This document shows, piece by piece, positions 57,127 through 58,625 of a stretch of 64,000 nucleotides of DNA. Position numbers and translations under genes: made by a program. Under the pieces are notes generated by a model that worked only from the letters and a program-made list of their open reading frames with translations, did not search any database and was not told where the DNA came from. This DNA comes from an uncultured Chlamydiales bacterium (lineage in GTDB: Bacteria; Chlamydiota; Chlamydiia; Chlamydiales; JAAKFR01): NCBI GenBank assembly GCA_963699155.1, contig OY969414.1:1451757-1515756 (forward strand), read 5' to 3'. The first letter of the stretch is position 1, and each line of letters opens with the position of its first letter.

Positions 57127-57222
57127 GCTGGGCTTGTTTTCTGAACGCTTTGCTCCCCCAAAAATTTTCTTACTATTAAGATAATTAATTTTAAATATGT
57201 TAAAATAAGAAAGGAGGGATTT

Positions 57223-57729
57223 GTGGATATTAATACTATTCTTAAAAATCCGAAATTCCGAGAGAGACTTCTCAATGATCCGAAGGAGCTCCTTCGTCAA
57301 GAATGTCATGTCGATATCCCTCCCAGCACTGAAATTGTTGTTATTGAAGGGAAGCCTAAAACGGTCTATCTGGTGATACCAGCAGAGCAAAATGAGTCAT
57401 CAGAACCCATAGTTAATAGAGTTTTAACAGATCACCTTTTTAGAGAAAAATTAAAGAGAAATCCAAAGGCGATATTAGCTTCTGAATATCAATTGTCACT
57501 TCCCGAAGATTATTCGGTTGAACTCTATGAAGAAACAAAGGAAAAGCTCTATCTAATTCTCCCCCCGTTAGAACTCTCAGAAGAGGAGTTGAGTAACATT
57601 ACTGGTGGCACTTTTCTCGAGGAGCTCGACAAGTTTGGCCGCTCTGTTGTTGTAGCCCTACCTACATTCTGTATAGGTTTTGCTAGTCCACGCATAAGAA
57701 ACTGGGTAGAAACAAACAAGTATGAATAA
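57223..57729 (+). CDS. NHLP-family RiPP precursor with tandem duplicated leader
   Basis: Two FRE.L...PK..L...P...YL..P units, then ELSEEELSNITGG and a 39-aa core. Confidence 0.85.
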   Translation: MDINTILKNPKFRERLLNDPKELLRQECHVDIPPSTEIVVIEGKPKTVYLVIPAEQNESSEPIVNRVLTDHLFREKLKRNPKAILASEYQLSLPEDYSVELYEETKEKLYLILPPLELSEEELSNITGGTFLEELDKFGRSVVVALPTFCIGFASPRIRNWVETNKYE

Positions 57730-57815
57730 CTATTCCTGATTCACACCCGCATTTTTTTACTGGGAATAAATGATTTAGGTGTAGATATTGTCTCTGGTTT
57801 ATTTGGGAGAGTTTT

Positions 57816-58193
57816 ATGGCTTCTGTCTCAAAATTGAGTAGTTCTCAGCTGAGGAATATAGAGAGGCCGCACTGCTGTCAACAGACTCATGCCTTTATCA
57901 CAGGTTTTGCGGTGGCAGCGATCGGGTTAGCTGCATCGGGGCTTGCATTGACGCAGAGGATTGTGGGTGCGATTGATGGTCGAAGTTGTGATGAAGCTTC
58001 GATGCAATACTTTAACTGTAGGCAAAGCGTCTCTTACATACAAAGTGGTGTTAAGTGCAATGATTTGGAAATGGCAAGAGATAGTGCTTGTCTGGCCTTC
58101 ACAAATAGGGATCAGGCCTACATCTTTTTTTGTGTAGTTTTAGCCAGTAGCATTCTGCTTTATCAAGCGAGCCGCTGTCTATTCAAGAGTTAA
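57816..58193 (+). CDS. Small Cys-rich two-TM protein
   Basis: Two hydrophobic segments around a loop with four Cys; GGGAGAG RBS. Confidence 0.65.
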   Translation: MASVSKLSSSQLRNIERPHCCQQTHAFITGFAVAAIGLAASGLALTQRIVGAIDGRSCDEASMQYFNCRQSVSYIQSGVKCNDLEMARDSACLAFTNRDQAYIFFCVVLASSILLYQASRCLFKS

Positions 58194-58210
58194 GCCTGGG
58201 TTTTTTCAAG

Positions 58211-58555
58211 TTACCAGTTGTAAAGGTTGATTTTGGATGTAGAATGGTCTCTGGCAAACTCATGCATTGCTTTCGCTCCAACAAAACCAGAACCAATATC
58301 GTATAAAATGCCACCCCCTGCAAAGGCTTCCAACTCTTCATCTGAAAGTTCTTCAGAAACATAGGGGATGACCAAAGACCATTTCTTTTTTTGGTTTTCA
58401 ATCACACTGATTTCGAGATCGTCGGGGAGCTTAACCTGAAACTCTTCCTCTATTGTTTTTTTAGGGTTTTCCAGGAGTTTTTGCTTAAACTCCTTATCTT
58501 CCAAAGCCCTTATAATCAAGATTTGTTTAAGATTTAATTTTTTTTCTTCGTTCAT
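58211..58555 (-). CDS. NHLP-family RiPP precursor
   Basis: IIRALEDKEFKQKLLENPK...LP...LVIP...ELSDEELEAFAGG and a 33-aa core. Confidence 0.9.
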   Translation of the reverse strand: MNEEKKLNLKQILIIRALEDKEFKQKLLENPKKTIEEEFQVKLPDDLEISVIENQKKKWSLVIPYVSEELSDEELEAFAGGGILYDIGSGFVGAKAMHEFARDHSTSKINLYNW

Positions 58556-58625
58556 AAATACCCCCCTTTCTTATTATTATAACATTTTTCAAAATAAATG
58601 GGGATCGTCAACTTATCGAACCCTT

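Follow-up and report, generated by a model that had tools for sequence, protein, structure and literature searches.

Two NHLP double-glycine precursor genes of a chlamydia belong to a dispersed 17-gene family with candidate export cassettes elsewhere on the chromosome

Introduction

In proteusins, an NHLP (nitrile hydratase-like leader peptide) precursor undergoes maturation by enzymes that include radical SAM epimerases. Haft, Basu and Mitchell (2010; PMC2887384), in the available text of their paper, tie NHLP precursors to a three-gene export cassette, describe leader homology that ends at a Gly-Gly site, large paralogous families and precursors distant from the export genes, and note species that have NHLP genes without enzymes for thiazole/oxazole-modified microcins (TOMM) or lanthionine. 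Double-glycine bacteriocin clusters of cyanobacteria, as presented in the accessible part of Wang, Fewer and Sivonen (2011; PMC3140520), combine a short C39-ABC transporter, a second, long ABC transporter without peptidase, an HlyD protein and several NHLP precursors, with a mean of more than three precursors per cluster in the main groups. In chlamydiae, an antiSMASH survey (Dharamshi et al. 2022; PMC9666466, as far as its available text goes) often found clusters resembling those for peptides that are made on ribosomes and then modified post-translationally (RiPPs) outside the Chlamydiaceae and none within that family. Here we describe a 64,000-nucleotide (nt) stretch, called the window (G000:1451757-1515756), from the closed genome of an uncultured Chlamydiales bacterium (G000; 2,399,326 bp, 47.5% G+C), and in it an islet in which two convergent genes with NHLP leaders, A and B, enclose a third, middle gene.

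The system in G000 shares with the NHLP/NHLM arrangement the leader homology, the loss of similarity at Gly-Gly, the large paralogous family and the distance between precursors and export genes, and the families TIGR03794, TIGR03796 and TIGR03797 are all present. It differs in lacking a TOMM, lanthionine or radical SAM maturase and in having two leader repeats in 13 of 17 precursors, and its host belongs to the chlamydial phylum, whereas the only 'chlamydia group' example in the available text of PMC2887384 is Victivallis. The components of the cyanobacterial clusters recur as well, but the precursors of G000 are spread among housekeeping genes. To the extent that these two papers were accessible, the system is a known arrangement with many NHLP precursors per NHLM exporter, here without a maturase, and RiPP-like clusters of environmental chlamydiae have already been published at survey level (PMC9666466). 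The accessible main text of that survey does not contain the words 'bacteriocin', 'proteusin' or 'lanthipeptide' and describes no dispersed precursors. Modestly new are the number of family members and their dispersal in a chlamydial genome of 2.4 Mb, a second exporter with altered catalytic positions and, with the support of a structure model, the reading of a double leader as a whole nitrile-hydratase-alpha-like domain. A literature search linking NHLP and chlamydia matched Haft et al. (2010) only, again on the basis of partial text; searches on nitrile hydratase in chlamydiae gave no NHLP paper, as judged from titles and abstract openings, and searches on bacteriocins or ABC transporters in chlamydiae and amoebae gave nothing on this subject, as judged from the listings.

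Results

Genes A and B belong to a dispersed NHLP precursor family

Scored as whole proteins against the NCBIfam model TIGR03793 (NHLP leader; curated cut-off 50.9 bits), gene A reached 92.6 bits, in two stretches, and gene B 77.7 bits. The cut-off was exceeded in none of 14 control genomes, and the match of both genes is far beyond chance. Both leaders terminate in ELSxEELxxxxGG (...LELSEEELSNITGG in A and ...EELSDEELEAFAGG in B), with L, L and I in A and L, L and F in B at positions -12, -7 and -4. The model and the translations confirm the two convergent genes with nitrile-hydratase-like leaders that had been read from the DNA alone, and establish them as genuine NHLP-leader double-glycine precursors; the core sequences are identical to those first quoted. 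Pfam NHase_alpha matches too (44.8 bits for A), and TIGR01847 gives 15.9 bits on A against a cut-off of 15.7. Leader A contains one Cys and leader B none, and the Cys cluster with which nitrile hydratases bind metal is absent from both leaders as read in the sequence. A word-indexed homologue search with gene A returned gene A itself and nothing else. The description of the two cores as unrelated holds insofar as A and B show no convincing alignment past the leader, but both carry N-W near the C-terminus, a feature common to other paralogues.

When the whole of G000 was scanned with TIGR03793, 31 matches were obtained at E <= 1, of which 30 lie in 17 open reading frames (ORFs), the remaining one, with six stops, being noise. 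Two NHLP repeats are present in thirteen of these ORFs, namely gene A and 12 paralogues, and a single one in the other four, and the whole-protein score is above the cut-off in all except one, which has 49.3 bits. The 17 genes lie at 15 loci, singly or in pairs, with housekeeping genes such as hisS, gnd, zwf, prfA, dnaN, ftsH and tilS as neighbours, and insertion sequence (IS) elements adjoin three of the loci. The pair in the window had been called an orphan, which is true of this locus alone, since it is part of a 17-gene family in a genome that also has two export cassettes. Shine-Dalgarno sequences are present in 13 of the 17 genes, and 15 keep hydrophobic positions -12, -7 and -4 ahead of a GG, GA, AG or DG site. 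In the paralogue alignment, conservation is gone past the Gly-Gly site, after which hypervariable tails follow, which is the pattern of leader-core precursors. Gene B is 59% identical over 98 amino acids (aa) to a precursor at G000:565462-565824, located 2.4 kb from one of the cassettes, while the closest paralogue of gene A shows 34% identity over 198 columns. No upstream motif common to the family was found among the 17 genes, other than -10-like TATAAT boxes and Shine-Dalgarno sequences.

A chlamydial affiliation of G000 is in keeping with a protein of the Pfam family CT021, with a CesT-type type III secretion chaperone encoded beside glgX, and with its placement, in the genome grouping used, in one phylum with a genus whose genomes measure 1.0-1.2 Mb. 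Immediately upstream of another precursor, at 1.043 Mb, is an ORF of 820 aa (G000:1040570-1043032) that combines leucine-rich repeats with a NEL (novel E3 ligase) domain at the C-terminus, an architecture typical of injected effectors.

An intact peptidase-containing exporter elsewhere on the chromosome

The search of G000 for Peptidase_C39 gave two matches, neither of them inside the window, in agreement with the initial remark that no C39 transporter gene is present there. The genome holds two NHLP-type C39-ABC/ABC/HlyD cassettes, approximately 0.69 and 0.94 Mb from the islet (Table 1). The cut-offs of the family models are 156.2 bits for TIGR03794 (HlyD), 853.3 bits for TIGR03796 (ABC1) and 709.4 bits for TIGR03797 (ABC2). 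In cassette 1, HlyD scores 199 bits and ABC1 (G000:2201395-2203545) 910.8 bits, and the C39 domain of the latter retains the catalytic Cys (QMEAVECGAA) and His (YNHF). This domain matches LahT150, a double-glycine protease of known structure (6mpz, E 7e-41); LahT is reportedly a peptidase-containing ABC transporter. The original prediction depended on a family match and on processing machinery somewhere in the genome, and both the TIGR03793 matches and two cassettes were found. With the cassettes elsewhere on the chromosome, its proposal of processing in trans is well placed, in the sense that the precursors would be processed in trans if at all. According to the available text of PMC12537861, hydrophobic residues at -12, -7 and -4 are implicated in directing C39 peptidase activity.

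A fragment corresponding to positions 334-708 of the ABC1 model, with three in-frame stops, is found approximately 9 kb upstream of cassette 1 (G000:2188348-2189457) and is probably a decayed ABC transporter gene.

No recognisable maturase in the genome

Neither YcaO (PF02624) nor LanC (PF05147) had a match in G000. Eleven radical SAM (PF04055) proteins are encoded, MtaB, MiaB, MqnC, an MqnE-like protein, RimO, HemW, HemN, LipA, two RlmN proteins and EpmB, all of which fall in or close to housekeeping equivalogs, with no epimerase candidate among them. None of the eleven is encoded in the window, which was correctly described as free of radical SAM, YcaO and LanM genes. No known RiPP maturase family was found among 131 ORFs of at least 85 aa around 12 precursor loci (the longest of 182, the shortest being omitted), and the ORFs around the two cassettes suggest no maturase, although family models were applied to a minority of these; the negative is also limited in that no genome-wide search covered GNAT or further families of low specificity. 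Because no maturase was found, the proteusin-type maturation that had been associated with such leaders is not supported here. What is shared with the proteusins is the leader family, and the second repeat in the gene A model aligns weakly with a precursor structure solved by nuclear magnetic resonance (NMR; 8tb1, Z 2.4, 56 residues); what separates G000 from them is the housekeeping character of its radical SAM proteins.

Since the genome contains no recognisable RiPP maturase, the cores would most likely be released unmodified, like class II bacteriocins or microcins. The Gly-Gly signature and an exporter that comprises HlyD, a TolC-like protein and a C39 domain left intact are common ground with those systems, but the leaders of A and B, at 81-129 aa, are longer than the approximately 15-30 aa that are usual there. 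The 17 cores measure 22-55 aa, have net charges of 0 to +3, contain no or one Cys and are poor in Ser and Thr. In five paralogues, though not in A or B, a core segment is hydrophobic enough for a membrane helix. Trp occurs within the last 12 residues of 8 of the 17 paralogues, compared with 81 of 625 long ORFs (13%; binomial P approximately 0.001, with paralogues that are not independent), and within the last 12 residues of 45 of 149 public representatives, 20 of which end exactly in Trp.

The double leader is predicted to form a nitrile-hydratase-alpha-like domain

Our own hidden Markov model (HMM) places the two NHLP domains of gene A at residues 4-58 and 57-129. The Gly-Gly region is missing from the first repeat of gene A and of its 12 two-repeat paralogues, so that each protein would have a single cleavage site. 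The AlphaFold2 model of gene A, based on an alignment of 79 sequences, has a predicted local distance difference test (pLDDT) score of 81.9 and a predicted TM-score (pTM) of 0.74, and consists of two helix-helix-helix-hairpin (HHH-EE) units, a short helix over ELSEEEL and a core of low confidence, with pLDDT below 50 at residues 139-152. The significant Foldseek matches (27 at E <= 0.001) come from the alpha chain of nitrile hydratase and the gamma chain of thiocyanate hydrolase. With VIA-align, model residues 2-148 are colinear with residues ~46-193 or 57-204 of nitrile hydratase alpha (Z 6.0-6.9, root-mean-square deviation 4.1-4.7 Å, 117-126 residues aligned), and thiocyanate hydrolase gives Z 5.7-5.8; among the matches listed, 35 of 36 are nitrile hydratase or thiocyanate hydrolase, the other being the proteusin precursor NMR structure. 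In Pfam, paralogues match NHase_alpha positions 43-173 in one stretch. Judging from these models, the two NHLP repeats together appear to constitute one whole globular nitrile-hydratase-alpha-like domain.

The two-repeat architecture is not rare in public data. A phmmer search with gene A against 1.84 billion representatives gave 861 proteins at E <= 0.001, and among the best 150 of these our HMM found two domains in 123, one in 22, four in 4 and none in 1, although a two-repeat query favours two-domain matches. The examples that carry names are proteins from cyanobacterial metagenome-assembled genomes, labelled NHLP family precursors. Among the best-ranked papers listed, our literature searches found no description of tandem NHLP leaders, and tandem, duplicated or repeated NHLP leaders go unmentioned in PMC12537861. 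Tandem repeats that rebuild a nitrile hydratase alpha domain would bear on the origin of long leaders.

NHLP systems across the phylum

In a sample of 300 chlamydial genomes (G005 left out), NHLP was detected in 36 at E <= 1e-5 and ABC1 in 52 at E <= 1e-100. ABC1 is present in 29 of the 36 NHLP-positive genomes compared with 23 of the 264 NHLP-negative ones, related genomes not being independent in this comparison. None of the 29 genomes of the small-genome family f3 has NHLP, and the scan agrees in this with the antiSMASH survey, as far as PMC9666466 was accessible. A precursor lies directly beside ABC1 in many genomes of the phylum, while the precursors are scattered in G000 and in G147, one other genome of the genus. 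In G114, a TolC-HlyD-ABC1-ABC2 series is followed by five tandem two-repeat precursors, with GNAT genes on both sides, and in G060 a single precursor accompanies HlyD-ABC1-ABC2, both clusters being of the transport-only kind. Modified and transport-only NHLP systems both seem, from gene content, to occur in the phylum, and G000 would be of the transport-only type.

The preferred reading and its alternatives

On balance it seems probable that A and B are two of 17 NHLP double-glycine precursors at 15 loci that are cleaved and exported in trans by cassette 1 and whose cores remain unmodified. The precursor would be made with a large folded acidic leader, consisting of one nitrile-hydratase-alpha-like repeat in B and of two repeats that form a whole domain in A, followed by the amphipathic ELSxEELxxxxGG helix. 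The C39 domain of the ABC exporter at G000:2201395-2203545 would read the hydrophobic residues at -12, -7 and -4 and cut after Gly-Gly, and the core of 33-39 residues would leave the cell via the ABC1/ABC2-HlyD-TolC-like cassette.

Several observations weigh against this reading. ABC2 of cassette 1 scores 685.6 bits, just below its cut-off, and the 282-aa HlyD of cassette 2, at 143.2 bits, is below cut-off as well. In the pairwise alignment, ABC1 of cassette 2 (G000:570393-572546; L014:10394-12547, minus strand) has Ser at the position of the catalytic Cys and Gln at that of the His, because of which its C39 looks like a non-catalytic C39-like domain. HlyB has such a non-cleaving C39-like domain, and cassette 2 may resemble it. 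The Gly-Gly site has been lost in 2 of the 17 paralogues. A 57-aa frame (G000:1701395-1701568, plus strand) that reads ...ELAQVSGG and then a Gly-rich hydrophobic tail matches no family model; its start directly abuts an IS3-type element, and it has the look of a truncated 18th precursor copy that lost its leader to the IS insertion. The mean G+C content of the precursors is 40.8%, and 39.3% at third codon positions, compared with 48.3% and 51.7% for 625 long ORFs, and the low G+C of the islet itself (37-46%) is thus a trait of all the precursor genes together. Of 500 shuffles, 13% attained the best 18-residue hydrophobic moment of core A and 45% that of core B, so that the impression of amphipathic cores in the original prediction is not borne out: A and B are not above shuffled controls. 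G147 has 8 single-repeat precursors, of which none is orthologous to A or B (best match 43% identity, in the leader only), and the repertoire would therefore turn over quickly. NHLP leaders recruit maturases in characterised systems, according to the available texts of PMC12537861 and PMC2887384, and two genomes of the phylum, G099 (C1:1853500-1873000) and G031 (C3:262000-279000), encode LanM, YcaO-TfuA and ThiF/ThiS beside NHLP arrays with short cores. The cluster in G099 also contains a nonribosomal peptide synthetase module and a C39-ABC gene with HlyD-like and TolC-like genes.

Given the maturases beside NHLP genes in those two genomes, and the GNAT genes on both sides of the array in G114, an unrecognised modifier may act on the cores of G000 too, which would make them modified RiPPs (proteusin-like, acylated or other) with a maturase elsewhere that the family models used do not recognise. 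This we consider unlikely, in view of the lack of YcaO and LanC, the eleven radical SAM proteins at or close to housekeeping functions, the 131 neighbouring ORFs without a known maturase family and cores with at most one Cys and few Ser or Thr. Some of the points listed above could also mean that the islet is evolutionary debris, recent copies in a birth-and-death family that are neither expressed nor exported: A and B have no orthologues in G147, G+C is low, two sites are degenerate, one copy is truncated by an IS element and three loci adjoin IS elements, cassette 2 is catalytically altered, and the broken ABC fragment upstream of cassette 1 has three stops. The ORFs of A and B are intact, however, with strong Shine-Dalgarno sequences, leader scores well over the cut-off and the -12, -7, -4 and Gly-Gly signature retained, and cassette 1 is complete with its catalytic residues present, which makes mere debris quite improbable. 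The compact model of the gene A repeats, its colinearity with globular nitrile hydratase alpha and the frequency of two-domain and even four-domain proteins among the best 150 representatives would fit a folded domain that is itself the product, as a mini-protein or an attached carrier, with a C-terminal tail that is not released. Yet conservation stops exactly at Gly-Gly, the tails are hypervariable, neither leader has the metal-binding Cys cluster and G000 encodes a matching, cleaving exporter, so that we give this idea very little credence.

The remaining alternative concerns the middle gene, which indeed encodes a Cys-rich protein with two putative transmembrane (TM) segments, as first described: it has 8 Cys and hydrophobic segments at residues 25-43 and 100-118. 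It starts 87 nt downstream of A and is read in the same direction, and the interval contains nothing resembling a terminator, which fits an operon of A and the middle gene, and a small membrane protein would suit the layout usually ascribed to class II bacteriocins, in which case gene A and the middle gene would be a bacteriocin-immunity pair. The precursor at 2175540 is likewise followed, 78 nt downstream and in the same direction, by a two-TM gene of 102 aa. Such a small gene just downstream of a precursor was found at only 2 of the 15 loci, though, and two tandem paralogues of the middle gene (Table 1), which have the same layout, a loop with Cys between two TM segments, and share three invariant Cys with it, adjoin rpsD and a membrane protein gene, with no precursor nearby. 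The middle gene matches no Pfam, NCBIfam or known immunity family, the protein atlas gave no usable match, and homologues were absent from all 20 other genomes of the taxonomic family, with one weak match within G000. It appears from these comparisons to be a member of a small lineage-specific membrane protein family. The proposed immunity function is unsupported, and we regard the pairing as improbable.

Chlamydiae are usually regarded as reduced intracellular specialists. This one, for which the chlamydial affiliation suggests an intracellular lifestyle, has 17 genes and two type-I-like exporters for secreted peptides, a repertoire not common to G147, and this points to an ongoing conflict with microbes or the host inside amoebae or similar hosts. 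The peptides may have a role in competition, and the defence or host manipulation that was originally envisaged is purely speculative. Coming back to precursors cleaved and exported in trans, a bolder extension, which we put forward with considerable doubt, is that a whole but catalytically dead nitrile hydratase alpha domain might have become a folded acidic export or solubility carrier for unmodified, often transmembrane-like peptides prone to end in Trp, encoded by 17-18 genes of fast turnover and served by one active and one dead exporter, for an attack on co-resident bacteria or the host vacuole membrane inside a eukaryotic cell. For RiPP mining, the lesson would be that a precursor that looks orphaned locally can be wholly served in trans, and that a transport-only NHLP system may yield unmodified peptides.

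Layout and history of the locus

The features of the islet, its flanks and the related loci are listed in Table 1. The Shine-Dalgarno sequences of A (AAGGAGGG, 7 nt upstream of the start) and B are strong, and together they form a 15-nt inverted repeat, I1. A promoter scan of the islet gave consensus-level matches only (7 compared with 2.9 expected), none of which we count as evidence, and a terminator scan found no terminator within the islet. Elsewhere in G000, the RNA polymerase beta-prime gene (Rpb1 domains 1-5; G000:1242165-1245683) is split into four successive ORFs of 340, 284, 262 and 322 aa, reflecting either assembly frameshift errors or a broken gene, which calls for caution with all short ORFs of this genome. 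A search of sequencing runs listed no RNA run and gave two soil-metagenome DNA runs with 8-10% of the sampled words.

Table 1. Coordinates of the islet, its surroundings and related loci in G000. Positions without a prefix follow the numbering of the 64,000-nt window.
Feature	Position	Strand	Description
Gene A	57223-57729	+	168 aa, GTG start
Gene A leader, residues 1-129	57223-57609	+	two NHLP repeats, then ELSEEELSNITGG cleavage helix to Gly128-Gly129
Gene A core and stop codon	57610-57729	+	39 aa, net charge 0, 1 Cys (translation)
Gene B	58211-58555	-	114 aa
Gene B leader, residues 1-81	58313-58555	-	single NHLP domain, ending in ELSDEELEAFAGG
Gene B core and stop codon	58211-58312	-	33 aa, Cys-free, C-terminus ...LYNW (translation)
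Middle gene	57816-58193	+	125-aa ORF between A and B
Cassette 1	G000:2198513-2206495		TolC-like outer-membrane protein, HlyD, ABC1 with C39, 1000-aa ABC2
Cassette 2	G000:568183-573394		ABC2 770.8 bits, ABC1 903.6 bits, short 282-aa HlyD
Tandem middle-gene paralogues	L032:896-1309 and 1366-1824 (G000 ~613.4-614.4 kb)	-	137 and 152 aa
SpoIID-domain gene	56198-56998	+	PF08486; left flank of islet
GlgX-type isoamylase gene	58626-60761	-	right flank of islet
55-nt direct repeat, copy 1	56964-57018	+	genuine 3' end of SpoIID-domain gene including stop codon (repeat search)
55-nt direct repeat, copy 2	57072-57126	+	96% identical, spacing 108 nt; left edge of islet

The islet interrupts the gene order dcd, ruvB, spoIID-like, glgX, CesT chaperone, the gene for the CesT-type type III secretion chaperone adjoining glgX. 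The DNA of the islet has no match in G147, where the gap between spoIID and glgX (within C1:1606000-1622500) measures 16 kb and contains genes for a 1749-aa RHS-repeat protein, a reverse transcriptase of the group II intron type and a MacAB-TolC-type pump. The spoIID-like gene and glgX are convergent and separated by 189 nt in G009, which belongs to a distant genus and measures 1.1 Mb, and in G087 they lie at opposite ends of a single contig and are probably adjacent. The distance is approximately 10-11 kb in G045 and G099, and in G061 glgX was not found with the query used. An interruption of a core gene order had been claimed for this site, which holds for G000, but the two genes are adjacent in one of five other genomes of the phylum, probably in two, and the order is not universal. 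Gene content suggests that the spoIID-glgX junction is a variable site, with cargo of a conflict type in G000 as well as in G147.

A hairpin followed by a T-run lies between the two copies of the 55-nt repeat, and after copy 2 only the 3' half of that hairpin is found. Copy 2 may be the scar of the rearrangement that placed the islet at this position.

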